Below are positions 8,166 through 63,170 of a stretch of 64,000 nt of DNA, piece by piece. Source of the stretch: Pristiophorus japonicus. Lineage: Eukaryota. The stretch's first letter is position 1; every line of letters starts with the position of its first letter. The notes under the pieces were generated by a model that saw nothing but the letters and a program-made list of their open reading frames with translations, searched no databases and was not told the DNA's origin. The DNA lies in NCBI RefSeq assembly GCF_044704955.1, contig NC_091998.1, forward strand, positions 11,842,001 to 11,906,000. The letters run 5' to 3'. The translations under genes and the position numbers were made by a program.

Positions 8166-8176
8166 ATAGGCTGCAT

Positions 8177-9421
8177 CATAGAAACATAGAAACATAGAAA
8201 ATAGGTGCAGAAGTAGGCCATTCGGCCCTTCTAGCCTGCACCGCCATTCAATGAGTTCATGGCTGAACATACAACTTCAGTACCCCATTCCTGCTTTCTC
8301 ACCATACCCCTTGATCCCCCTAGTAGTAAGGACTTTATCTAACTCCTTTTTGAATATATTTAGTGAATTGGCCTCAACAACTTTCTGTGGTAGAGAATTC
8401 CACAGGTTCACCACTCTCTGGGTGAAGAAATTCCTCCTCATCTCGGTCCTAAATGGCTTCCCCCTTATCCTTAGACTGTGACCCCTGGTTCTGGACTTCC
8501 CCAACATTGGGAACATTCTTCCTGCATCTAACCTGTCTAAACCCGTCAGAATTTTAAACATTTCTATGAGGTCCCCTCTCATTCTTCTGAACTCCAGTGA
8601 ATACAAGCCCAGTTGATCCAGTCTTTCTTGATAGGTCAGTCCCGCCATCCCGGGAATCAGTCTGGTGAACCTTCGCTGCACTCCCTCAATAGCAAGAATG
8701 TCCTTCCTCAGGTTAGGAGACCAAAACTGTACACAATACTCCAGGTGTGGCCTCACCAAGGCCCTGTACAACTGTAGCAACACCTCCCTGCCCCTGTACT
8801 CAAATCCCCTCGCTATGAAGGCCAACATGCCATTTGCTTTCTTAACCGCCTGCTGTACCTGCATGCCAACCTTCAATGACTGATGTACCATGACACCCAG
8901 GTCTCTTTGCACCTCCCCTTTTCCTAATCTGTCACCATTCAGATAATAGTCTGTCTCTCTGTTTTTACCACCAAAGTGGATAACCTCACATTTATCCACA
9001 TTATACTTCATCTGCCATGCATTTGCCCACTCACCTAACCAAGTCGCTCTGCAGCCCCATAGCATCCTCCTCGCAGCTCACACTGCCACCCAACTTAGTG
9101 TCATACGCAAATTTGGAGATACTACATTTAATCCCCTCGTCTAAATCATTAATGTACAGTGTAAACAGCTGGGGCCCCAGCACAGAACCTTGCGGTACCC
9201 CACTAGTCACTGCCTGCCATTCTGAAAAGTCCCATTTACTCCTACTCTTTGCTTCCTGTCTGACAACCAGTTCTCAATCCATGTCAGCACACTACCCCCA
9301 ATCCCACGTGCTTTAACTTTGCACATTAATCTCTTGTGTGGGACCTTGTCGAAAGCCTTCTGAAAGTCCAAATATACCACATCAACTGGTTCTCCCGTGT
9401 CCACTCTACTGGAAACATCAT
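8177..9421 (-). mobile_element. 5'-truncated young CR1 LINE (RT C-terminal half to tail)
   Basis: ORFs 9207..9440 and 8277..9065 give VYLDFQKAFDKVPH and the ORF2 C-terminus. Tail at 8177-8200. catcat is present at both ends (possible TSD). Confidence 0.95.
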
Positions 9422-12377: not shown

Positions 12378-15362
12378 TATTGCAGGGGGATGGGAACCTA
12401 TACAGGGAGACAGAGGGAGACAAAAATGAGGCAAAAGCAAAAGATAGAAAGGAGATGAGGAAAGGTGGAGGGCAGAGAAACCCAAGGCAAAGAACAAAAA
12501 GGGCCACTGTACAGCAAAATTCTAGAAGGACAAAGGGTGTTAAAAAAGCAAGCCTGAAGGCTTTGTGTCTTAATGCAAGGAGTATCCGCAATAAGGTGGA
12601 TGAATTAACTGTGCAAATAGATGTTAACAAATATGATGTGATTGGGATTACGGAGACGTGGCTCCAGGATGATCAGGGCTGGGAACTCAACATCCAGGGG
12701 TATTCAACATTCAGGAAGGATAGAATAAAAGGAAAAAGGAGGTGGGGTAGCATTGCTGGTTAAAGAGGAGATTAATGCAATAGTTAGGAAAGACATTAGC
12801 TTGGATGATGTGGAATCTATATGGGTAGAGCTGCAGAACACTAAAGGGCAAAAATCGTTAGTGGGAGTTGTGTACAGACCTCCAAACAGTAGTAGTGATG
12901 TTGGGGAGGGCATCAAACAGGAAATTAGGAGTGCATGCAATAAAGGTGCAGCAGTTATAATGGGTGACTTTAATATGCACATAGATTGGGCTAGCCAAAC
13001 TGGAAGCAATACGGTGGAGGAGGATTTCCTGGAATGCATAAGGGATGGTTTTCTAGACCAATATGTCGAGGAACCAACTAGGGGGGAGGCCATCTTAGAC
13101 TGGGTGTTGTGTAATGAGAGAGGATTAATTAGCAATCTCATTGTGCGAGGCCCCTTGGGGAAGAGTGACCATAATATGGTGGAATTCTGCATTAGGATGG
13201 AGAATGAAACAGTTAATTCAGAGACCATGGTCCAGAACTTAAAGAAGGGTAACTTTGAAGGTATGAGGCATGAATTGGCTAAGATAGATTGGCTAATGAT
13301 ACTTAAGGGGTTGACTGTGGATGGGCAATGGCAGACATTTAGAGACCGCATGGATGAATTACAACAATTGTACATTCCTGTCTGGCGTAAAAATAAAAAA
13401 GGGAAGGTGGCTCAACCGTGGCTATCTAGGGAAATCAGCGATAGTATTAAAGCCAAGGAAATGGCATACAAATTGGCCAGAAATAGCAGCGAACCTGGGG
13501 ACTGGGAGAAATTTAGAACTCAGCAGAGGAGTACAAAGGATTTGATTAGGGCAGGGAAAATGGAATACGAGAGGAAGCTTGCAGGGAACATTAAGGCGGA
13601 TTGCAAAAGTTTCTATAGGTATGTAAAGAGAAAAAGGTTAGTAAAGACAAACGTAGGTCCCCTGCAGTCAGAATCAGGGGAAGTCATAACGGGGAACAAA
13701 GAAATGGCAGACCAATTGAACAAGTACTTTGGTTCAGTATTCACTAAGGAGGACACAAACAACCTTCCGGATATAAAAGTGGTCAGAGGGTCTATTAAGG
13801 AGGAGGAACTGAGGGAAATCTTTATTAGTCGGGAAATTGTGTTGGGGAAATTGATGGGATTGAAGGCCGATAAATCCCCAGGGCCTGATGGACTGCATCC
13901 CAGAGTACTTAAGGAGGTGGCCTTGGAAATAGCGGATGCATTGACAGTCATTTTCCAACATTCCATTGACTCTGGATCAGTTCCTATCGAGTGGAGGGTA
14001 GCCAATGTAACCCCACTTTTTAAAAAAGGAGGGAGAGAGAAAGCAGGGAATTATAGACCGGTCAGCCTGACCTCAGTAGTGGGTAAAATGATGGAATCAA
14101 TTATTAAGGATGTCATAGCAGCGCATTTGGAAAATGGTGACATGATAGGTCCAAGTCAGCATGGATTTGTGAAAGGGAGATCATGCTTGACAAATCTTCT
14201 GGAATTTTTTGAGGATGTTTCCAATAAAGTGGACAAAGGAGTACCAGTTGATGTGGTATATTTGGACTTTCAGAAGGCTTTCGACAAGGTCCCACAAAGG
14301 AGATTAATGTGCAAAGTTAAAGCACATGGGATTGGGGGTAGTGTGCTGACGTGGATTGAGAACTGGTTGTCAGACAGGAAGCAAAGAGTAGGAGTAAATG
14401 GGTACTTTTCGGAATGGCAGGCAGTGACTAGTGGGGTACCGCAGGGTTCTGTGCTGGGGCCCCAGCTGTTTACATTGTACATTAATGATTTAGACGAGGG
14501 GATTAAATGTAGTATCTCCAAATTTGCGGATGACACTAAGTTGGGTGGCAGTGTGAGCTGCGAGGAGGATGCTATGAGGCTACAGAGTGACTTGGATAGG
14601 TTAGATGAGTGGGCAAATGCGTGGCAGATGAAGTATAATGTGGATAAATGTGAGGTTATCCACTTTGGTGGTAAAAACAGAGAGACAGACTATTATCTGA
14701 ATGGTGACAGATTAGGAAAAGGGAAGGTGCAACGAGACCTGGGTGTCATGGTACATCAGTCATTGAAGGTTGGCATGCAGGTACAGCAGGCGGTTAAGAA
14801 AGCAAATGGCATGTTGGCCTTCATAGCGAGGGGATTTGAGTACAGGGGCAGGGAGGTGTTGCTACAGTTGTACAGGGCCTTGGTGAGGCCACACCTGGAG
14901 TATTGTGTACAGTTTTGGTCTCCTAACTTGAGGAAGGACATTCTTGCTATTGAGGGAGTGCAGCGAAGGTTCACCAGACTGATTCCCGGGATGGCGGGAC
15001 TGACATATCAAGAAAGACTGGATCAACTGGGCTTGTATTCACTGGAGTTCAGAAGAGTGAGAGGGGACCTCATAGAAACGTTTAAAATTCTGACGGGTTT
15101 GGACAGGTTAGATGCAGGAAGAATGTTCCCAATGTTGGGGAAGTCCAGAACCAGGGGTCACAGTCTAAGGATAAGGGGTAAGCCATTTAGGACCGAGATA
15201 AGGAGAAACTTCTTCACCCAGAGAGTGGTGAACCTGTGGAATTCTCTACCACAGAAAGTAGTTGAGGCCAATTCACTAAATATATTCAAAAGGGAGTTAG
15301 ATGAAGTCCTTACTACTCGGGGGATCAAGGGGTATGGCGTGAAAGCAGGAAGTGGGTACTGA
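12374..15362 (+). CDS. CR1 ORF2p: APE endonuclease and reverse transcriptase, one +1 A frameshift at about 12735
   Basis: NARSI, GITETW, GGGVA (after correction), [38 protein letters not shown]. Split into ORFs 12380..12763 and 12753..15362. Confidence 0.95.
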
Positions 15363-15755
15363 AGTTTCATGTTCAGCCATGAACTCATTGAATGGCGGTG
15401 CAGGCTAGAAGGGCTGAATGGCCTGCTCCTGCACCTATTTTCTATGTTTCTATGTTTCACTGACAATGAACTCCATAAAACAACAGGAAATTGGTATGGA
15501 TGATGCTTCAAAAGAGTTCGGAGCAGGAGTCGGCCATTCGGCCCATCGCGCCTGCTCCATCATTCAATGAGATCATGGCTGATCTTCCACCTCAACTCCA
15601 CTTTCCTGCACTATCCCCATATCCCTTAATATCCAAAAATGTAACATTCATGGATGTATTGTATAGAAGGATCAATAGCTTTGGCCCGTCTGTTCTGGGT
15701 CTGTATCACAATACCAAAGACACATTCAAAAGATAGGTTTACAAGTGGCACTTAC

Positions 15756-48729: not shown

Positions 48730-51700
48730 TGTCATGTATGTGACCATCATGCACCGGTAATCTTCATGTAACTGTAACCTTCATGCAACTCCTGTACACT
48801 GTACTTATACCCTAGAAATGCACACCCTGACCACAGGGGATGAATTTGCAGGAGACACTCCTCACCTGGCTTTCCAGGTATAAAAGGGGAGGCCTCACCC
48901 AGGTTCAGCATTCTTTGGTCCTGGGAATAAAGGTTAAGGTCACAGAGCGACTGTGTCTGCAATCCATGTCTTGTGAGAATTTGTAGTACGGTGCAGGGGC
49001 ACCACATTTGGCGACGAGAAACGGGAATCACCGAACCACAAAAATAACCACTGGTAGCACAGAAGAACATTACTGTGTGGGTGAGAACTGGGACGACTTC
49101 ATGGAAAGACTCCAGCAGAGCTTTGTCACGAAGGACTGGCTGGGAGCGACAGCGGCTGACAAGCGGAGGGCGCATCTACTGACCAGCTGCGGACCACAGA
49201 CATATGCACTGATGAAAGACCCGCTCACACCCCAAAAGCCAGCGGACAAGTCCTTTGAAGAGCTCAGCCAGCTGATTAGTGAGCATCTCAAGCCGGCGAG
49301 TAGCGTACGCTTGGCCCGGCACCGGTTCTACACACACCGGCGTCGGGAGGGACAAAACATCTCGACTCTGTAGGTTCACAGACGCCTGCAGGAGGGAGAT
49401 GTTAAGAGATTTCTTCATTGAGGGCATTAATCAGGAAGCTCATAAAGACCAAGGACTTGACTTTAGAAGGGGCGGCGTTGATCGCTCAGACCTTCATGGC
49501 AGGGAAAGAGGAGACCAAGATAATTTACACGAGCAGCCCTGGTCCCAACGTGGCGATGGACCAGGGAGCTAACATGGTGAATGCGGCTCGGGACCCCGCA
49601 GGCAGGCAAGGGCATTTCAAAACCGCCCAGGCAGCAACAGACTTTAGGGTGGGCCTGCAGCAGGGACAATGGAAAGGGGATCGGTAATTCACGCCATCAC
49701 GAGGAACAATGTGTCCTGCAATGGGACCATTAACACCCACCATCAGAGTGCTTAGAAACAACCAATGGGCAATCAGAGAGGAATGCCTGGCAACAGTCCC
49801 TTTGTTAACAACAATCTCAGCTCATGCTGGAGGTGCGGGGGTAGACATACTGTGAAAAGCTGCAGGTTTCAGCAATATACCAGTAGGATTTGTAACGTCA
49901 GTGGACACTTGGCCAGGATGTGCAAAAAGGCTGTCGCGAGGCTAATCTGGGAGACAGAGGAACCAGAGGAAGGGTCTGCAATGCAGAATGATGCCTGGGG
50001 AAAAGCCATGGATGCTGAAGTTCAGCGGGTTCATGTGGCTGACGTCCACAGTTCATACACTAAAACGCCTCCCATGATGATGAAAGTTTTATTGAATGGC
50101 ATCCCGGTGCACATGGAGCTGGATACGGGAGCTAGCCAGTCACTTATGAGTGCCCAACAATTTGAGAGACTATAGCCACACAGAGCTAGCAGGCCCAAAT
50201 TGGAACGCATTGAGACGCAGCTACAGACGTACACCAAAGAGATCATCCCAGTGCTGGGCAGTGCAAACTTGGTGGTAATACATAATGGATTACAGAACCG
50301 GCTGCCACTCTGGATCGTCCCGGGAAATGGTCCCGCGCTCTTGGGGAGGAGTTGGCTAGCTGAGATGAATTGGAAATGGGGGGATGTGCACGCCATTTCA
50401 TCTGTGGAGCGGAGTTCATGCTCACAGGTCCTACAGAAATTCGGTGTCGGAACGTTCAAGGGCACGAAAGTAGTGATACGCATCACTCCGGACGCCAGAC
50501 CAGTGCACCACAAAGCCAGAGCGGTGCCGTATGTGATGCGTGAGAAAATTGAAAGTGAATTGGACAGGCTGCTCAGAGAGGGCATCATTTCGGCCGTTGA
50601 ATTCAGCGACTGGGCAAGTCCCATCATTCCTGTCCTTAAAGCGGATGGCTCGGTCAGGATTTGTGGCGACTACAAAGCCACCATCAGCCGAGTGTCGATG
50701 CAAGACCAATACCTGCTCCCGAGAACGGAGAACCTTTTTGCCACACTGGCAGGTGGCAAGCTGTTCACGAAGTTGGACCTCACTTCGGCCTACATGACTC
50801 AGGAACTGGCTGAAGAATCCAAGCTTCTGATCACCATCACAACGCACAAGAGATTATTTATCTACAACAGGTGTCCGTTTGGCATTCGTTCGGCGGCAGC
50901 CATCTTTCAGAGAAACATGGAAAGCTTGCTCAAATCCATTCCTGGAACAATCGTATTCCAAGACAACATCTTTATAACAGGTCGAGACACCGAGCAACAC
51001 CTCCACAACCTGGAGGAGATGCTACGCCGACTGGACCGAGTAGGCTTGCGGTTGAAAAAGCCCAAGTGTGTGTTTTTGGTCACAGAGGTCGAGTTTTTGG
51101 GCAGGAAGGTTGCTGCAGACGGGATCCGACCCACTGAATCAAAAACGGAGGCGATCCGCCGGGAGCCCAGGCCTGGCAACACGTCGGAGTTGCGATCATT
51201 CCTGGGACTTTTGAACTATTTCGGGAACTTTCTGCCGAACTTAAGCACATTGTTGGAGCCGTTACACATGCTCCTTCGTAAAGGTTGTGAATGGCTTTGG
51301 GGGACTGCCAAGAATGGACTTTCAATAAGGTGAGGAACCTGCTGTGTTCTAACAAACTGTTGACTTTGTATGATCCCTGTAAAAAAACTGGTTTTAACAT
51401 GCGATGCATTATCCTACGGGGTTGGGTGTGTGTTGCAGCAGGGTAATGATGACGGCCAACTCCAACCGGTGGCTTATGCCTCCAGGTCGCTCTCCCAGGC
51501 AGAGCGTGGATATGACATGGTCGAAAAGGAAGCACTCGCTTGTGTTTACGGTGTGAAAAAGATGCACCATTATCTTTTCGGTGGACAGTTCGAGCTAGAA
51601 ACAGACCACAAGCCGTTAACATCCCTGTTGTCCGACAGCAAGGCTGTCAATGCCAATGCGTCAGCTCGCATACAGCGATGGGCCCTCACGCTGGCTGCAT

Positions 51701-53453
51701 ATGACTACACCATACGGCACCGGCCAGGCACCGAAAATTGTGCTGACGCGCTCAGCAGGCTCCCACTGGCCACCACCGAGGGGCCAGCGGAGCAAAACGC
51801 TGAGATGGTCATGGCCATTGAGGCTTTTGACACCGCAGGCTCCCCCATCATAGACTGCCAGATCAAACTCTGGACCAACAGAGACCCCCTCCTATCCATG
51901 GTAAAGAAATGTGTCCTGACTGGGGATTAGGCGCCCGCACACATGCGTGTCCCGAGGAGGTCAGACCGTTTCAGAGACGGATAGATGAGCTCTCCATCCA
52001 AGCCTGCTATGGGGCAGCCAGGTTGTCATACCCCAGAAAGGAAGGGAAACATTCATCAGGGAACTCCACAGCGAGCACCCTGGCATCGTGTTAATGGAGG
52101 CCATTGCCCGGTCACATGTATGGTGGCCGGGGATTGACTCAGACCTGGAACACTGGGTTCGCAGGTGCACGATGTGTGCCCAGCTGGGCAATGCCCCCAG
52201 GGCGGCCCCACTCAGCCCGTGGCCCTGGCTCACCAGGCCATGGTCACGTATTCACGTAGACTATGCGGGCCCGTTCATGGGGAAAATGTTCCTGATCATT
52301 GCCGATGCATACTCGAAATGGATCGAGTGCATCATATTAAACTCGTGCATGGCATCCATCACCGTGGAGAGTCTGCATACGGTTTTCGCGACTCAAGGCT
52401 TGCCGGACATCCTGGTCAGCAACAATGGCCTGTGTTTCACCAACTATGAATTCCAGGAGTTTATTTCGGGCAATGGTATCAAACACGTACGGACAGCACC
52501 ATTCAAGCCGTCTTCCAATGGTCAGGCGGAACGTGCGGTCCAAGTCATAAAGCAGGGCATGCTACGCATCCAAGGACCCTCCCTTCAGTACCGCCTATCA
52601 CGCCTCCTGCTGGCCTACAGGTCCCGCCCGGACTCGCTCATGGGAGTCCCGCCAGCGGAACTCCTCATGAAGCGCACGCTTAAAATGCGGCTGTCCCTCA
52701 TCCACCCAGCCCTGGCAGACATTGTTGAGGGCAAGCGCCAGTCCCAAACCGAGTTCCATGATCGAAACTCAAGGGGGAGGTGTATAGAAATGGATGACCC
52801 GGTATTTGTTCTTAACCATGCTTTGGGACCCAAGTGGCTTGAGGGCACAGGAATTGGCAAAGAAGGAAATAGAGTCATAGTGGTCAGACTAAACAATGGG
52901 CAGATATGCCGCAAACACTTGGACCAAGCAAAGCAAAGGTTCAGCATAGACACGGAGGAACCTGAAGAAGAACATGAGATGTCACCCACACCACTGCCAG
53001 TGGATGAGCAACAAGGACAGCCCTCAGCATGCACAGTCCCTGCGGCCAGCCCGGACAGGCCGGAATCACCTCAATGACAGAGACGCGTGCCAAGGCTCAG
53101 TCACCAGGGCCACAACTGTGGCGCTCCACGAGAGAGCGTCAACCACCTGAAAGACTTAACCTTTGACACAAAAAAACGTAAGGGGGGAGGTGATGTCATG
53201 TATGTAACCATCATGCAATGGTAATCTTCATGCAACTCCCGTACACTGTATTTATAGCCTAGAAATGCACACCCTGACCACAGGGGGTGAACTTGCGGGA
53301 GACACCCCTCACCTGGGTTTCCAGGTATAAAAGGGGAGGTCACACCCAGGGTCAGCACTCCTTGGTCCTGGGAATAAAGGTTAAGGTCACAGAGTGACTG
53401 TGTCTGCAGTACATGCCTCGTGTGAATTTGTAGTAAGATGCAGGGACACCACA
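48730..53453 (+). mobile_element. Full-length decayed Gypsy (Mag-like) LTR retrotransposon
   Basis: LTRs 48730-49006 and 53194-53453 (TG...CA), PBS TGGCGACGAG at 49009-49018, PPT at 53180-53190. Gag knuckles CWRCGGRH..C / C..SGHLARMC, protease LDTGAS, RT, RNase H, integrase HVDYAGP. Multiple stops and frameshifts. Confidence 0.96.
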
Positions 53454-53456
53454 TCG

Positions 53457-53798
53457 AAAAACAACAACTTTTACTTATATAGCGCCTTTAAAGTAGTGAA
53501 ACATCCCAAGGCGCATTACAGGAGTATTATGAGACAAGAAATTTGACACTGAGCCACATAAGGTGAAATTAGCGCAGGTGACTAAAAGCTTGGTCAAAGA
53601 GGTAGGTTTTAAGAAGCGTCTTGAAGGAGGAAAGTAAGGTAGAGAGGCGGAGAGGTTTAGGCAGGGAGTTCCAGAGCTTGGGGCCCAGGCAACAGAAGGC
53701 ACGGCCACCAATGGTTGAGTGATTAAAATCGTGGATGTTCAAGAGGCCAGAATTGGAGAAGCACAGATATCTCGGCGAGTTATGGGGCTGGAGGAGAT
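53457..53798 (-). mobile_element. L2 3' fragment
   Basis: GGRAFCCLGPKLWNSLPKPLR...FKTLLKTYLF on the minus strand. Confidence 0.85.
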
Positions 53799-55579: not shown

Positions 55580-55718
55580 GTTTATACCTATATACACGAA
55601 TGTACCTATATACAGAAGTGCCTATATACACTAATGTACCTATATACAGAAGTACCTATATATACTAATGTACCTATGTACAGAAGTACCTATATACACT
55701 AATGTACCTATATACAGG
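55580..55718 (+). repeat. Tandem repeat GTACCTATATAC(AGAA/ACTAAT), 16+18-bp dimer
   Basis: About 8 subunits visible. Confidence 0.9.
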
Positions 55719-55992
55719 ACAGAATATGTACTAGCCTGTATCATTTCACATGTTATTGAGAGAAATTTGCATATATGTATAGAAATCTAATATTGCAATG
55801 TTGCCAGAACCAGAATATATACCTACTTGATACAGAATTTTTGCTTCCATTATTGAATATACTGGTCTATGTTTTTAGACTCGGAATCATATATGTAATG
55901 TAATGAACATGAACAAACATAACTATAGTCATTTTGCCCCCGGCCCATCAGGCCCTGCTCCTACCCTACCTCTCCTAAAGAGAAAGAAGCAG

Positions 55993-56405
55993 AATGGGCC
56001 TATACGCTCTGGAGTTTAGAAGAATGAGAGGTGATCTAGTTGAAACATACAAGATTCTGAGGGGGATTGACAGGGTAGATGCAGAGAGGTTGTTTCCCCT
56101 GACTGGAGAGTCTAGAACGAGGGGGCACAGTCTCGGGATAAGGGACTGAAATGATGAGGAATTTCTTCACTCAGAGGGTTGTGTATCTTTGGAATTCTCT
56201 ACCCCAGAGGGCTGTGGATGCTCAGTCGTTGAGTATATTCAAGGCTGAGAGCAACAGATTTTTGAACTCTAAGGGAATCAAGGGAAATGGAGATTGGGCT
56301 GGAAAGTGGAGTTGAGGTAGAAGATCAGCCGTGATCGTACCGAATGGTGGAGCAAGCTCGAGGGGCCGTGTGGCCTTCTCCTGCTGCTAATTCTTATGTC
56401 CTTAG
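55993..56405 (+). mobile_element. CR1 3' fragment
   Basis: LEFRRMRGDL, RTRGH, FFTQRVV motifs and 3' UTR. Confidence 0.88.
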
Positions 56406-57285
56406 AACATCTTCAATTGTTTGGTTTATGGGCTGTTTCTCAAATTCTGCCCTGTTGAGCATCCCTGATTATAACTGCTCATCCTTTGGTGGTCGTGCCT
56501 TCAGCTGCCTGGGCTCCAAGCTCTGGAACTCCCTCCCTAAACCTCTCCGCCTCTCTACCTCTCTCTCCTCCTTTAAGATGCTCCTTAAAACCTAACTCTT
56601 AGACTAAGCTTTTTGTTATCTGCCATAATTTCTTCTCATGTGGCTCAGTGTCAAATGTATTTGTTTTGTCTTATAATACTCCTATGAAGCGCCTGGGACG
56701 TTTTACTGCATTAAAGGTGCTATATAAGTGTTGTGTATGCAATAACTGTTAAACTGAGTACTGTTTAACTCCAAGAGGTATGACCTTGGCTCTGCTTTAT
56801 TAAGGCCCAAAGTGACTAATATACAAAATGGCTGGCCTTTTATACTTGGGCTGCACACATGTGCGTGGCCTCCAATAGTGACGCCATCTAGTGGCTAGTG
56901 ATCCCAAAAGTTCATACATGACATAAGAACATAAGAAATAGGAGCCGGAGTAGGCCATACGGCCCCTCGAGCCTGCTCCGCCATTTAATATGACCATGGC
57001 TGATCTGATCATGGACTCAGGTCCACTTCCCCGCCCAGTCCCCATAACCCCTTATTCCCTTATCGGTTGAGAAACTGTCTATCTCTGTCTTAAACTTATT
57101 TAATGTCCCAGCTTCCACAGCTCTCTGAGGCAGTGAATTCCACAGATTTACAACCCTCTGAGAGAAGAAATTCCTCCTCATCTCAGTTTTAAGTGGGCGG
57201 CCCCTTATCCTAAGATCATGCCCTCTAGTTCTATTCTCCCTTATCAATGGAAACATTCTCTCTGCATCCAGCTTGTCAAGCTCCC
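56247..57285 (+). repeat. Direct duplication copy 1 (1039 bp; copy 2 at 61699-62734)
   Basis: Collinear CR1 end, L2 end, solo LTR and inverted CR1 end. Roughly a dozen substitutions and one 3-nt indel. Confidence 0.97.
56729..56923 (-). mobile_element. Gypsy solo LTR (195 bp); duplicate at 62181-62375
   Basis: TGTCATGTATG...CATACACAACA inverted termini, TATAAAA and AATAAA on the minus strand, TAAG on both flanks. Confidence 0.75.
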
Positions 57286-60200
57286 CATTGTCTTTATAGG
57301 TTCAGTCTCTCAGTCGGTCTATGCTCTCATGTGGAGCATCTGAGTTGTGGTTCAGTTGTTTGCCTTGGTGTCTGTTTTACTTTGGGTGTGGTTGCTGGTA
57401 TCTTGCCTGGGCTGTCTGTTTCGATTGGTGTGATTGTTGTTGACTCGCCTGGGCTGTCTGTTGGGATTGCCCTTTCCTCAGGTTGTTACCTCTGTCTGTC
57501 CACCAGGTGAGGTGCGAGTTCCACATTGTAGTCTGCCTCTGGTTCCGCAGTGTTGTTGGTAAATCTGCTTTTGACTTGATCTACCTGCCTCCGGCAGGTT
57601 TTGCCATTGTCCATTTGTACTACCAGTAGCCTGTTTCCTTCCTTGCCCGTTACTGTCCCTGCAAGCCATTTGTGACCCCTGCCATCATTTAGTACAAACA
57701 CTTTGTCCCCTATCTCATTCCATCTCCCCCCTCGAATTTCTGTCATGGTACTCAGTCAGCTTACGGCGCTTTGCCTCAACGATTTTGTGCATGTCTGGGA
57801 GGATTAATGAGAGCCTTGTTTTTAAAGTCCTTTTCATCAACAGTTGCGTGGGGGGGATCCCAGTCAGTGAGTGCGGACGAGATCTGTATGCCAGCAGCAG
57901 TCGTGACAGGTGACCCTGCAGCGTGGGACCTTGGATGTTAAGCATGCCTTGTTTAATGATTTGCACTGCTCTCTCCGCCTGGCCGTTGGAGGTCGGCTTG
58001 AACGGTGCCGTCTTGACGTGATTTATGCCGTGGTCAATCATAAAGTCTTGGAATTCTGTGCTGGTGAAGCACGGACGAATGTCACTGACCAATATGTCAG
58101 GGATTCCGTGTGTTGCAAACATGGTTGCGAGGCTCTCCACAGTGGTGGAGGTTGTGCTCGAGTTTAAAATGGTGCATTTGATCCACTTTGAAAATGCATC
58201 CACAACTACGAGGAACATTTTGCCCATGATTGGGCCCGCATAGTCTACGTGCACCCGCGACCACGGTTTGGTTGGCCAGGACCAGGGGCTCAGTGGAGCC
58301 TCCCTGGGGGCATTGCTGAGTTGGGCACAAATGGTGCACCTTCGGACGCAGAGCTCCAGCTCTGCGTCAATACCAGGCCATCAGACGTGGGATCTGGCTA
58401 TGGCCTTCATGAGAAGGATCCCCGGGTGCTCGCGGTGGAGCTCCCGGACAAATGCCTCTCTGCCTCGCAGAGGCATGACTACTCGGCTGCCCCACATCAG
58501 GCAGTCTGCTTGTAGTGATGCTCATGCATGCACCTGTGAAAGGGTTTTAATTCCTCGGGGCAGGCATCGTGAGCCTCTGCCCAGTCACCGGTTAGGACAC
58601 ATCTTTTCACTAAGGATAACGTGGGGTTGCTGGCCGTCCAGGCTCTGATTTGGCGAGCTGTCATGGGCGAACCTGTGGATTCAAAGTCATTGATTACCAT
58701 GACTATCTCACAGTCCTGTTCATCAGACCCTTCCGTGGTCGCCAGGGGTAGCCTGCTGAGCGCGTCGACACAGTTGTCTGTACCTTATGGTATAGTCGTA
58801 GGACGCCAGCATGAGTGCCCACCGTTGAATTCGCGCCGAGGCGTTGGCGTTTATTGCCTTGCTCTCGGATAGGAGGGATGTGAAGGGCTTGTGGTCAGTT
58901 TCTAACGCGAACTTGGCCCCGAAAAGGTATTGGTGCATCTTTTTGACAACGTACACGCACGTGAGCGCCTCCTTCTCGAACATTCCGTACCCGCGCTCTG
59001 CCCGCGAAAGTGACCTGGAAGCATAAGCTATGGGTTGTAATTTGCCCGCACTATTGACATGTTGCAAAACGTACCCGACCCCATACGCTGATGCATCGCA
59101 TGTGAGAACTAGCTTTTTACCTGGGTCAAAGAAAGTCAAAATACTGTTGGAACACAGAAGGTTGCGTGCCTTATTGAAGGCGCGTTCCTGGGCGTCCCCC
59201 CAAAACCAATCGCACCCCTTCCTGAATAGCACGTGGAGAGGCTCCAGCAGCGTGCTTAAGTTCTGCATAAAGTTCCTAAAGTAATTGAGTAGCCTGAGAA
59301 AGGCGCGCAGTTCTGAGACATTCCGGGTCCTGGGTGCCAGGCGAATTGCTTCTGTTTTGGACTCTGTTGGGCGGATTCCATCAGATGCAATCCTTCTGCC
59401 CAAAAATTCAACCTCGGGAAACAGGCACTTGGATTTCTTGACTCGTAGGCCTACCAATCCAACCGCTTTAGTACTTCCTCCAAATTACGGAGATGGGAGT
59501 CGGTGTCCCTGCCGTGATAAGTATGTCGTCTTGAAATACAACCGTCCCCGGGATGGACTTGAGCAGACTCTCCATGTTGCTGGAATATGGCAGCTGCCGA
59601 CCTGATGCCGAATGGGCATCGATTGTACATGAAAAGGCCTCGATGTGTGTTGATGGTGGTGAGTAGCTTGGATTCCTCGGTCAATTCTTGCATCATATAC
59701 GCAGATGTGAGGTCTAATTTTGAGAAAAGTGTACCTCCAGCCAAAATGGCAAATAAGTCCTCCGCTCTGGGCAGCGCGTACTGGTCCTGTAGGGATACTC
59801 TGTTTATAGTCCCCACAGATTCGTACGGATCTATCAGGCTTCATGACTGGGACAATGGGACTTGCCCAGTCGCTAAATTCCACAGGTGATATAATGCCTT
59901 CCCGCAGAAGCCTGTCTAGTTCGTGTTCAATCTTTTCCCTCATCACATAGGGTACAGCTCTGGCCTTGTGATAGACTGGTCTAGCATCCTGTGTGATGTA
60001 GATTTTGACTTTGGTCCCTTTGAAAGTGCCAACACCTGGCTGAAAGAGATGTTCAAATCGCTTTATAACTGTTGAGCAGGAGGTCCGTTCCTCTAATGAC
60101 ATGGCATGGACATCATCCCATTTCCAGTTTAGTTTTGCCAGCCAGCTTCTCCCCAGCAGTGCTGGGGGGGTCTCCAGGGACAATCCACAGGGGAAGTCGG

Positions 60201-61698
60201 TTCACTGTCCCTTTGTGTGTGACAGAGAGCATGGCGCTGCCAAGGACTGGTACGATTTCTTTGGTATAGTTCCTTAGTGTGGTGTCGACCCTTGTGAGTT
60301 TTGGTCTGTCTCTTTTATGCGGCCACAGTTGTTCAAATTGTTGAGCGCCCATGAGAGATTGACTCGCTCCCGTATCCAGCTCCATGTTGACAGATATCCC
60401 GTTGAGTAGGACCCTCATCATTATAGGAGAGGTCCTGTTGTAGGAGCAGCGGCCATTGATCGTGTTGACCCGCTGTACACCAGTGTCCCGGATACTGTCC
60501 CCACCATCTTCTGGTCCGCTTTCCGACCCATCCGATTCGTATACCAGCCGAGCTGCCGTTTTTTTTGCACATGCGGGCCAAATGCCCTGTATATTCACAG
60601 TTTCTGCAAACAGCCTGCTGAAATCGACATCCCCTTGCCGAGTGTTCCATTGTTCAAAGAGTTTCCAAAGAATGAGCTGCGTCTGGCTGATCTCTCTTGA
60701 GCTTCTCTCAGTTTGTAGTTGATTGCTCACATTGTGGGTTGATGAGGTGTGAACGGCCGTTCCTGTGGCCCTTGATGGCTTCTGCTTGCTGTCGAGAGCC
60801 TGTTCTCCCGGTTTTGTCTGTGTGTGGGGGCAGCAGCTTGTTTAGTGCTGTGAACTTCTTATTCCAATATTTCGTTAGTTGTCGTACCTGCATTGTAAAT
60901 CAACCTCGTTTCTTCTTCCCCTACCAAGAATGTCTGTGCTGCTGCCTCTAAGGTCAGGTTCTTGGTCTCTATGAGCTTTCAGAATATGCCTGCATGGCCT
61001 ATTTCTTCAATGAAAAAGTCTCTCAGCATTTCTCTCCTCAGTTCATCGGAGAACTTACATAAACTATCCAACCTCTGAAGTTCCGCCACGAAGTCGGGTA
61101 TGCTCTGGCCCACACAGCGTCTCTAGTTGTAGAACCTGTGCCTGGCCATGTGTAGGCTGCTCGCTGGCTTCAGGTGGTCTCTTACCAGTGTGCTCAATTC
61201 TTCAAACGACTTGCTTGCTGGTTTCTCGGGTGCCAACAGATCCTTCATTAAAGCATATGTTTTCGAGCCACAGCTGGTCAAGAGTTGGGCTCTTCTCTTG
61301 TCTGCCTTATCGTCGCCTAACCAGTCTTTGGTTACAAAACTTTGCTGGAGCCTTTCTATAAAGTCCTCCCAATTGTCTCCCGCATTGTACTTTTCATCTG
61401 ATCCGTTGTTCGCCATTCTGTGGATTCTGTAATCCCATCCTTGTCGCCACTGTAAAGTCCTGTCCCCTCAGTACAGATTCACACGAGGCATATAGTGAAG
61501 TCAAGGTCACTCTGGACCTGCACCTTTATTTCACAGCTCTGGAATGCTGCACTTGCCTGAGACCTGTCCTTATATACCTGTCTCTTGCAAGTGCACCCCT
61601 GGTGGTAAGGTATGCTGGTGGTTACAGGTCATATCTTATTACAGTCATGTATAGCATGTTAGGATACAGTTATATATAATAATGTAAGATACATGACA
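57281..61698 (-). mobile_element. Decayed Gypsy (Mag-like) element with 5' LTR (61698-61451), tRNA-Ser PBS, gag-pol and PPT, but no 3' LTR
   Basis: PBS TGGCGACAAGGATGGGATT at 61449-61431, gag MANNGSDEKY, LDTGAS, RT, LTCDASAYGVG, HVDYAGP. Ends TAA-AGACAAT-GGGGAG fused to CR1 sequence. Confidence 0.95.
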
Positions 61699-62734
61699 GA
61701 GATCAACAGATTTTTGAACTCTAAGGGAATCAAGGGAAATGGAGATTGGGCTGGAAAGTGGAGTTGAGGTAGAAGATCAGCCGTGATCGTACCGAATGGT
61801 GGAGCAAGCTCGAGGGGCCGTGTGGCCTTCTCCTGCTGCTAATTCTTATGTCCTTAGAACATCTTCAATTGTTTGGTTTATGGGCTGTTTCTCAAATTCT
61901 GCCCTGTTGAGCATCCCTGATTATAACTGCTCATCCATTGGTGGTCGTGCCTTCAGCTGCCTGGGCCCCAAGCTCTGGAACTCCCTCCCTAAACCTCTCC
62001 GCCTCTCTACCTCTCTCTCCTCCTTTAAGATGCTCCTTAAAACCTAACTCTTAGACTAAGCTTTTTGTTATCTGCCATAATTTCTTCTTATGTGGCTCAG
62101 TGTCAAATGTATTTGTTTTGTCTTATAATACTCCTATGAAGCGCCTGGGACGTTTTACTGTATTAAAGGTGCTATATAAGTGTTGTGTATGCAATAACTG
62201 TTAAACTGAGTACTGTTTAACTCCAAGAGGTATGACCTTGGCTCTGCTTTATTAAGGCCCAAAGTGACTAATATACAAAATGGCTGGCCTTTTATACTTG
62301 GGCTGCACACATGTGCGTGGCCTCCAATAGTGACGCCATCTAGTGGCTAGTGATCCCAAAAGTACATACATGACATAAGAACATAAGAAATAGGAGCCGG
62401 AGTAGGCTATACGGCCCCTCGAGCCTGCTCCGCCATTTAATATGACCATGGCTGATCTGATCATGGACTCAGGTCCACTTCCCCGCCCAGTCCCCATAAC
62501 CCCTTATTCCCTTATCGGTTGAGAAACTGTCTATCTCTGTCTTAAACTTATTTAATGTCCCAGCTTCCACAGCTCTCTGAGGCAGTGAATTCCACAGATT
62601 TACAACCCTCTGAGAGAAGAAATTCCTCCTCATCTCAGTTTTAAGTGGGCGGTCCCTTATCCTAAGATCATGCCCTCTAGTTCTAGTCTCCATCAGTGGA
62701 AACATCCTCTCTGCATCCACCTGGTCAAGCTCCC
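61699..62734 (+). repeat. Direct duplication copy 2
   Basis: Begins immediately after the LTR terminus (catgaca|gagatc). Confidence 0.97.
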
Positions 62735-63170
62735 TCATAATCTTATACGTTTCGATAAGATCACCTCTCATTCTTCTGAATTCCAATGAGTAGAGGCCCA
62801 ACCTCCTCAACCTTTCCTCATAAGTCAACCCCCTCATCTCTGGAATCAACCTAGTGAACCTTCTCTGAACTGCCTCCAAAACAAGTGTATCCTTTCGTAA
62901 ATATGGAAACCAAAACTGCACCAATACCCTGTGTAACTGTAGCAAGACATCGCTGCTTTTATACTCCATTCCCTTTGTAATAAAGGCCAAGATTCCAATG
63001 GCCTTGCTGATCACTTGCTGTACCTGCATACTAACCTTTTGTGCTTCATGCACCAGGACCCCAGGTCCCGCTGTACTGAGGCACTTTGCAATCTTTCTCC
63101 ATTTAAATAATAACTTGCTCTTCGATTTTTCTTCTGCCAAAGTGCATCACCTCACATTTTCTAACATTAT
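62376..63170 (-). mobile_element. CR1 3' fragment
   Basis: ORF 62469..63140 carries CR1 C-terminal motifs. Confidence 0.9.

Follow-up and report, generated by a model that had tools for sequence, protein, structure and literature searches.

The window analysed is a stretch of 64,000 nucleotides from Pristiophorus japonicus (NC_091998.1, positions 11,842,001 to 11,906,000 of the forward strand), and coordinates are given relative to its first letter. Towards its right-hand end, one Gypsy element is flanked by a pair of direct duplicates located at 56247-57285 (1,039 bp) and 61699-62734 (1,036 bp). The features of the locus are as follows.

55988-56404, plus strand: CR1-a, the 3' end of a CR1 and the host target (self-BLAST to the CR1 copies of the window, 68-82%)
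56247-57285, no strand: left copy of the duplicate, 1,039 bp (self-alignment)
56434-56728, also 61886-62180, no strand: 3' piece of another repeat within the duplicate, probably of LINE/SINE type (82% to 53473-53763)
56729-56923, also 62181-62375, minus strand: solo LTR of a different family within the duplicate (TG...CA, with TAAG either side)
56924-57285, minus strand: 3' end of CR1-b, left copy, ending at the joint (sequence comparison)
57234-57285, no strand: terminal 52 bp of the left copy, holding 6 of the 14 differences, some of them derived in the left copy and some in the right
57281-57302, no strand: the joint, a perfect 5-nt CTCCC followed by an imperfect likeness to the continuation of CR1-b at 62730-62751
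57286-61450, minus strand: decayed internal region of the Gypsy element, with PBS, gag, protease, RT, RNase H, integrase, 3' region and a remnant of the PPT
61451-61698, minus strand: sole LTR (5'), 248 bp, TG...CA, with its U3 end flush with the host
61699-62734, no strand: right copy of the duplicate, 1,036 bp (self-alignment)
62376-63170, minus strand: right copy of CR1-b, extending beyond 62734 into unduplicated DNA

A direct duplication of approximately 1.04 kb had been proposed in an earlier note on this DNA and was borne out by alignment of the two copies. The duplicate is composed of repeats only, namely the 3' end of a CR1, the LINE/SINE-type tail, a solo LTR that carries its own 4-bp duplication and the opposed 3' end of CR1-b; we take these repeats to resemble those of cartilaginous fish. 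Both copies had been described as continuing outward into host CR1, and alignment to other CR1 copies confirmed that CR1 is unbroken across both outer edges, at 55988-56399 over 56247 and at 62373-63170 over 62734. Since CR1 is unbroken to the left of 56247 and to the right of 62734, the left flank together with the left copy represents the pre-insertion state. The first 987 bp of the duplicate align without gaps and exhibit eight substitutions (56251, 56485, 56515, 56637, 56709, 56912, 56956 and 57201). The last 52 bp contain five substitutions and one 3-bp indel, so that 5% of the length accounts for 6 of the 14 events, in agreement with the claim that about half of the differences lie in the last ~55 bp. 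This clustering at the end of the duplicate yielded a scan-corrected P of 0.003, allowing for a cluster anywhere in the duplicate.

Elements of the Ty3/Gypsy type possess two LTRs, a PPT abutting the 3' LTR and a target duplication of 4-6 bp. The focal element has neither two LTRs nor a 3' LTR abutting its PPT, and its flanks are duplicated over 1.04 kb rather than over a short target site. Pfam matches (four of seven frames scanned) placed pol on the minus strand in the order protease-RT-RNase H-integrase, with RNase H and rve above the curated cut-off and protease and RT below it, and the reading frames are broken along the internal region. The boundaries of the LTR, corrected from those first given, were set at 61451-61698 (248 bp); it has TG...CA ends, and a PBS starting TGG is read from 61450. 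One copy of the duplicate was said to adjoin a clean LTR terminus, and the right copy indeed meets a flush U3 end, CA at 61697-61698 being joined to CR1-a, which is uninterrupted in the left copy. Sequence comparison within the window found no second copy of the LTR near the Gypsy element and none at the left junction, so that the reported complete loss of the 3' LTR stands. Formation of a solo LTR by recombination between LTRs was rejected, as the internal region is retained and the left junction is without an LTR.

In organism A the Gypsy family reaches a very high abundance; its depth there adds up to hundreds of thousands, a figure that does not give the copy number. Family contigs from 4 of 17 runs (X2, X4, X5 and X6) were compared with 55760-61698. 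A PPT abutting the LTR is present in the family contigs, and the neighbouring element, a related two-LTR copy at 48730-53453, has the usual Ty3/Gypsy arrangement and marks the expected position of the PPT. In the family contigs, 20 letters, including the purine run, are situated between 57287 and the start of the LTR; this stretch was seen directly in X5 record 18, via coordinates in X6 record 24 and, in 14 contigs of X4, as a loose end. Of those 20 letters, the focal copy retains 6 and is without the 5 nt adjoining the LTR and the 9 nt on the inner side. Judged from these contigs, the element is cut inside the PPT region, at a distance from the LTR of 5 to 20 nt according to the side to which CTCCC is assigned. 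The element had been described as cut exactly at its PPT, which holds for the region but not for the PPT-LTR edge, of which the end falls short by that distance.

The CTCCC microhomology reported at the PPT-side joint was found to be a perfect 5-nt match accompanied by an extended imperfect likeness. The PPT-side family 15-mer matched the sequence at 62730 in 11 of 15 positions with the first five perfect, the sole such site among 5,066 host positions on both sides of the element, where one other site reached 11 of 15 with a 4-nt lead. The register of the 15-mer was picked after the joint was known, which weakens the best-of-5,066 argument approximately tenfold. When the element side was used alone (57286-57302, without the pentamer), the top score among 5,028 positions was at 62735-62736, by one point. 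As the best local look-alike of the PPT is the observed partner at 62730, the free end appears to have annealed to CR1 sequence.

An equally good partner within 2.3 kb was available to 241 of 4,399 positions of the element and to 14 of 234 in the LTR. The likeness is therefore not specific to the PPT, and the PPT end points to a cause within the element. If cuts were evenly spread, the chance of one falling no more than 20 nt from the PPT would be approximately 0.5%, a value that becomes several-fold higher if only ends resected past the LTR need host homology. Given this higher chance under resection and the selection of the locus for its PPT feature, the argument from the position of the end is a moderate one.

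The internal region differed from contigs of organism B at 74 of 2,822 bp (X5, 2.6%) and 45 of 1,946 bp (X6, 2.3%). In the first contig piece, 14 of 16 differences were also majority differences in X2 and X4 (from 40 of 274 rows of differences, 38 of them within the element), which indicates that the differences are mostly private to the focal copy. Changes against X5 were strand-symmetric, with 23 A>G and 23 T>C against 5 G>A and 8 C>T, and among those listed there was a mild CpG excess (8 of 21 transitions, P 0.02) and at least 10 indel places in 4.2 kb of the element. Such a spectrum of changes is what decay within a genome would give. In the body of the duplicate there were 8 differences in 987 bp, where 26-52 would be expected, or 17 at the most cautious (P 0.01 or less), and no indels against 4.7 expected (P 0.009). 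On these counts the two copies resemble each other too closely in the body for a duplication as old as the Gypsy insertion. The conflict that had been remarked upon between the decay of gag-pol and the ~1% divergence of the duplicates is thus upheld, with ~2.5% in the internal region against 8 of 987 bp in the body. Of the 248 positions of the LTR, 1 differed from the X5 and X6 family contigs, whereas the internal region had 98 differences in 3,760 positions (Fisher P 0.013; Poisson 0.01-0.04); the count of 98 is slightly high, since length was the sole basis on which contig overlaps were trimmed. The age signals are accordingly split: the terminal 52 bp fit an old age and the LTR fits a young one.

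The polarity of the differences was taken from CR1 and other paralogues within the window, with 1 to 15 matches per body site. The eight body differences comprised four that are left-derived, three that are right-derived and one that is unpolarised. In the terminal 52 bp, 57234 and 57241 are left-derived, 9 of 9 and 8 of 9 paralogue matches respectively agreeing with the right copy; 57242 and 57271 are probably left-derived also, and 57247 and 57257 received no polarity from the window paralogues. The 3-bp deletion is right-derived, the extra codon being present in 11 of 12 protein paralogue matches, and so is the change at 62723, where 8 of 8 paralogue matches agree with the left copy. By paralogue polarity, then, the clustered differences at the PPT end are not confined to the PPT-side copy. 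The right-derived changes in the cluster imply either an old edge in both copies or an origin of the left 52 bp from another CR1. Error-prone synthesis acting alone was rejected as the origin of the cluster, as two of the changes are right-derived and P is 0.02 at the young rate. A templated insertion as the source of the left cluster was not supported, the best match being only 9 nt.

Bases common to both copies and rare in the window paralogues occur at 57273/62722 and 57282/62731; they would favour CR1-b as the source, and may be subfamily traits. The base at 62731 completes the 5-nt match. Its residue occurs in 0 of 12 window paralogue matches and the base itself in 2 of 12 DNA matches, which suggests that CR1-b itself was the annealing partner, unless this base is a trait of the subfamily. 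Searches for close relatives of the CR1-b subfamily gave no DNA matches in metagenome, viral and genome contigs. A protein search with CR1-b returned 50 loci, 19 of which cover the examined site; none belonged to the subfamily, most having 30-63% identity and higher values only over 14-23 residues.

Our tentative reading, held at a little under even probability, is that of an old one-ended integration that was finished by host repair and later homogenised by gene conversion. Integrase would have joined the U3 end of the 5' LTR alone to the host at 61699, where the flush end is observed. The opposite end, observed to be without a 3' LTR and to end in the PPT, may have arisen because plus-strand synthesis stalled before displacement of the LTR, or by resection past the LTR. 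The 3' end would then have annealed to the best nearby PPT look-alike, the observed likeness in CR1-b, 1.04 kb away, and on the HIV/ASLV model would have primed repair synthesis back over the target site, duplicating the kilobase and leaving an unbroken empty site at the left. The polarity would be as expected, since the strand joined at 61698 would free a Gypsy-sense 3' end, which would copy leftwards from 62730. The element would subsequently have decayed in place by ~2.5%, while conversion between direct repeats 5.4 kb apart would have held the body at 0.8% and the edges would have kept older differences; alternatively, the conversion partner may have been an empty allele regenerated by pop-out. 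Conversion between the direct repeats, a process absent from the earlier note, is invoked because the body is young and the element old, and it would explain the young-looking body, the old-looking edges and the derived changes on both copies.

In favour of this old integration, the 6 events in 52 bp are near the 2.3-2.6% per lineage (expected 2.4-2.7, P 0.04-0.06), a difference is present at the fifth base of the opposite edge (P 0.04), and the four anatomical marks of aberrant proviruses are all present. Against it, the LTR is nearly unchanged (1 of 248 against 98 of 3,760 internally), and the derived changes of the left copy in the cluster exceed the expectation from age only. The one-ended integration put forward in the earlier note fits the anatomy, the annealed PPT joint and the mechanism published in PMC5041404. 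The same note had held that the contrast between decay and ~1% divergence favours a crossover between alleles or trans-mobilisation; the conflict is real, but neither remedy removes it. A crossover fails since an insertion 2.5% old must face an empty haplotype only 0.8% away in the adjoining kilobase, and plain trans-mobilisation of an old copy is disfavoured because an old LTR would be expected and the LTR here is nearly unchanged.

Reverse transcription that halts before strand displacement, a step described in PMC13332604, would leave a PPT-ended sense strand, and a stalled strand of this kind may have been the starting point for the Gypsy element here. That the locus is a germ-line fossil of such an intermediate, in which the plus strand halted at the PPT before strand displacement, integrase inserted the completed U3 end and the PPT-ended strand primed repair on CR1, is possible, but on the unlikely side.

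One-ended integration, as set out in PMC5041404, involves a free and often truncated 3' end that primes host synthesis nearby via short homology, and recombination to one side of the first joint yields a duplication of hundreds or thousands of bp; the claim that one-ended integration with host repair gives large host duplications matches this account. In common with the aberrant HIV-1/ASLV proviruses of that study, the present locus has one normal and one truncated end, short homology at the bad end and a long direct host duplication starting at the normal junction. Those proviruses are cell-culture products of drugs, integrase mutants or mutated ends, whereas the focal element is a natural and presumably germ-line Gypsy retrotransposon, cut in its PPT.

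The human element HML-2 6p25.2 is likewise an old element with one LTR between near-identical long direct flanks (PMC5488345). It possesses a truncated internal region and no 3' LTR, its 111-bp flanks are 99.1-100% identical to the empty site, and the element, which is shared with the orangutan, is older than the split of that lineage from the human one; recombination of one flank with the other was proposed to cause pop-out. HML-2 is a betaretrovirus with flanks of at most 450 bp in a search limited to 500 bp, compared with the 1,039 bp of the present duplicate, and 6p25.2 is cut inside ORFs rather than in the PPT. Its authors favour models of rearrangement, which in the portion available are presented without a homology test at the joint.

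Annealing of a PPT to a host look-alike is also a feature of integrase-independent insertion of Tf1 with PBS/PPT overhangs (PMC11042837). In Tf1 the PPT overhang is outside an intact 5' LTR, whereas here the PPT-side LTR is absent and the end of the 5' LTR is flush. The focal locus thus lacks the geometry of Tf1-type annealing, in which PPT homology is situated upstream of an intact 5' LTR or PBS homology downstream of an intact 3' LTR. As regards homogenisation, conversion between duplicated blocks, which spares their edges, has been described together with raised divergence there (PMC2588116), and the focal duplicate shares the low divergence of the body and the high divergence of the edges. 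Conversion was demonstrated in that study via orthologues in sister species, whereas here it is deduced from polarity based on paralogues.

The foremost alternative, which we nevertheless consider improbable, is a young one-ended integration of a mosaic donor, in which a fresh LTR end was combined with an internal part from an old family copy, either because the two recombined while being reverse-transcribed or because an old genomic element served as template for the free end. In that case the terminal 52 bp would derive from another CR1 copy, the event being closed by homology with CR1-b. The LTR (1/248) and each copy of the duplicate (~0.4%) give the same young age, the body differences are divided between four left, three right and one unpolarised, and a paralogous template would explain the two-sided differences; a free end can gain several templates according to PMC5041404. 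On the LTR and the edges, the mosaic donor has a crude likelihood advantage of ~27-fold before priors. It requires two extra rare steps, a recombinant donor and a captured template, and the base at 62731 suggests CR1-b as the partner. The old integration with later conversion is preferred because these two steps together are judged rarer than conversion by more than 27-fold, such priors being a matter of judgement. A plain young event without a foreign template is ~1,000-fold less likely than the old integration and was rejected.

An ordinary two-LTR insertion may instead have suffered an early break near its 3' LTR that was repaired on the empty allele via PPT/CR1-b annealing, with conversion later; this corresponds to the second model of the earlier note. 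The final structure would be identical and the annealed joint fits, but such repair offers no reason for the PPT end, as good a partner being available to 241 of 4,399 element positions and 14 of 234 in the LTR, and an end bearing LTR sequence would have had perfect homology available. Conversion would still be required, the unchanged LTR would be unexplained and, as a weak point, no joint from ~56250 to 61451 was present among the 15 of 508 joints listed. We regard this repair as distinctly unlikely.

Equally doubtful is an artefact of assembly, in which CR1/LTR repeats led to the fusion of an empty haplotype with a filled one or with another locus, the 0.8% representing heterozygosity. The window does contain a 239-N gap (1060-1298), both joints are within abundant repeats, and a family-like LTR would be expected from a collapsed repeat. 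The extended imperfect likeness at 57285 is, on the other hand, a mark of annealing and not of graph collapse, and no other near-identical tandem duplicate was present among 16 repeat pairs of the window (at least 100 bp, 88%). The run contigs were listed for 15 of 508 joints, 17 of 3,230 loose ends and for 32 pieces; among these, none crosses or contradicts 57285, and none shows an empty or a two-LTR allele. The X2 and X4 contigs are ~100 bp in length and belong to a very abundant family, and the comparison stretch 55760-61698 held the left copy only; the near-zero depth of X2 and X4 for the focal letters is uninformative as to absence, since contigs lose rare variants. The locus has the appearance of a real-looking, well-defined rearranged insertion, located in repeat DNA with no evident function.

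Insertion of a CR1 at the PPT of the filled allele, followed by an unequal crossover with CR1-b of the empty allele in which the 3' LTR was lost and the kilobase duplicated, would explain the in-register, two-sided 52-bp cluster, and a joint of short homology is typical of LINE 5' ends. An insertion 2.5% old must then still face an empty allele 0.8% away, the PPT position is coincidental and the LTR is unexplained; this crossover is accordingly given a very low probability, and all other explanations together a slighter one still. LINE-mediated copying of a Gypsy-CR1 transcript was rejected, the U3 being complete and the duplicate reaching far past the CR1 tail, as was LTR-primed copying in cis, which would leave an LTR at 56247.

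In cultured cells one-ended integration is well documented, but there are few natural cases, and their origin is disputed, as with the long duplications of HML-2. Relative to the precedents of HIV/ASLV and HML-2 6p25.2, the Gypsy element, the duplicate of 1.04 kb and the end in the PPT are new. A literature search by title and start of abstract, with subscription journals outside its range, gave no Gypsy element combining a PPT cut with a long duplication, which is a weak negative. Here the lost end stops in the PPT and anneals to the most PPT-like site in the vicinity, which links a long duplication of natural origin with a definite intermediate. If the reading as a stalled intermediate is true, this very abundant family should contain further copies with one LTR, a PPT end and long duplications; they would form a class open to counting, a record of failed integrations in a vertebrate germ line and a source of kilobase host duplications. 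With its PPT end, the length of its duplicate and its mixed ages, this single decayed locus, known from assembly alone, makes a good test case. It also gives a caution for dating, in that flanking duplicates may appear several times younger than the element that they enclose.

Polarisation by paralogues in the window revealed an ordered arrangement of the differences within the body of the host duplicate (its first 987 bp), in which, of those polarised along 56251-57201, the first four are derived in the left copy and the next three in the right copy. An ordering of this kind has a probability of approximately 6% by chance (2/35 orders, counted by hand) and would be expected if conversion or crossover had left a boundary near 56640-56710. 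Each copy of the duplicate also contains a solo LTR:

56729-56923 and 62181-62375, 195-bp solo LTR of another family, inside both duplicate copies

This LTR has a normal 4-bp target duplication, and its site is the meeting point of two repeat tails within the duplicate.

Comparison of 57287-61698 with sequencing runs X5 and X6 of organism B yielded long contigs of the focal Gypsy family at a depth of ~4-18. Tail pieces of CR1-b, the CR1 at the right-hand end of the duplicate, were also present in these runs, and no contigs matching the flank at 55760-56749 were found in either. Either a horizontally shared element or DNA that a related animal contributed at a low level, assembling into family-typical contigs, would account for these organism B sequences.

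A second Gypsy, ~70% alike to the focal element, was identified:

48730-53453, + strand, related two-LTR Gypsy with LTRs, PBS and PPT all present

Its LTRs share 88.8% identity across 251 bp, with one 17-bp indel. No target duplication was visible around the element, and a repeat tail, presumably of LINE/SINE type, starts immediately 3' of its 3' LTR. The element is either an old copy or a two-element recombinant.

Other features of the window were:

1-753, 8176-9419 and 14214-15458, three CR1 copies, 96-98% mutual identity
54140-54290 and 55585-55717, short tandem arrays
1060-1298, gap of 239 N

The three CR1 copies are a young subfamily, separate from CR1-b and from CR1-a, the host target CR1. 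The array units are 24 bp, and 16 and 18 bp alternating. The unusual size of the gap suggests estimated-gap scaffolding.
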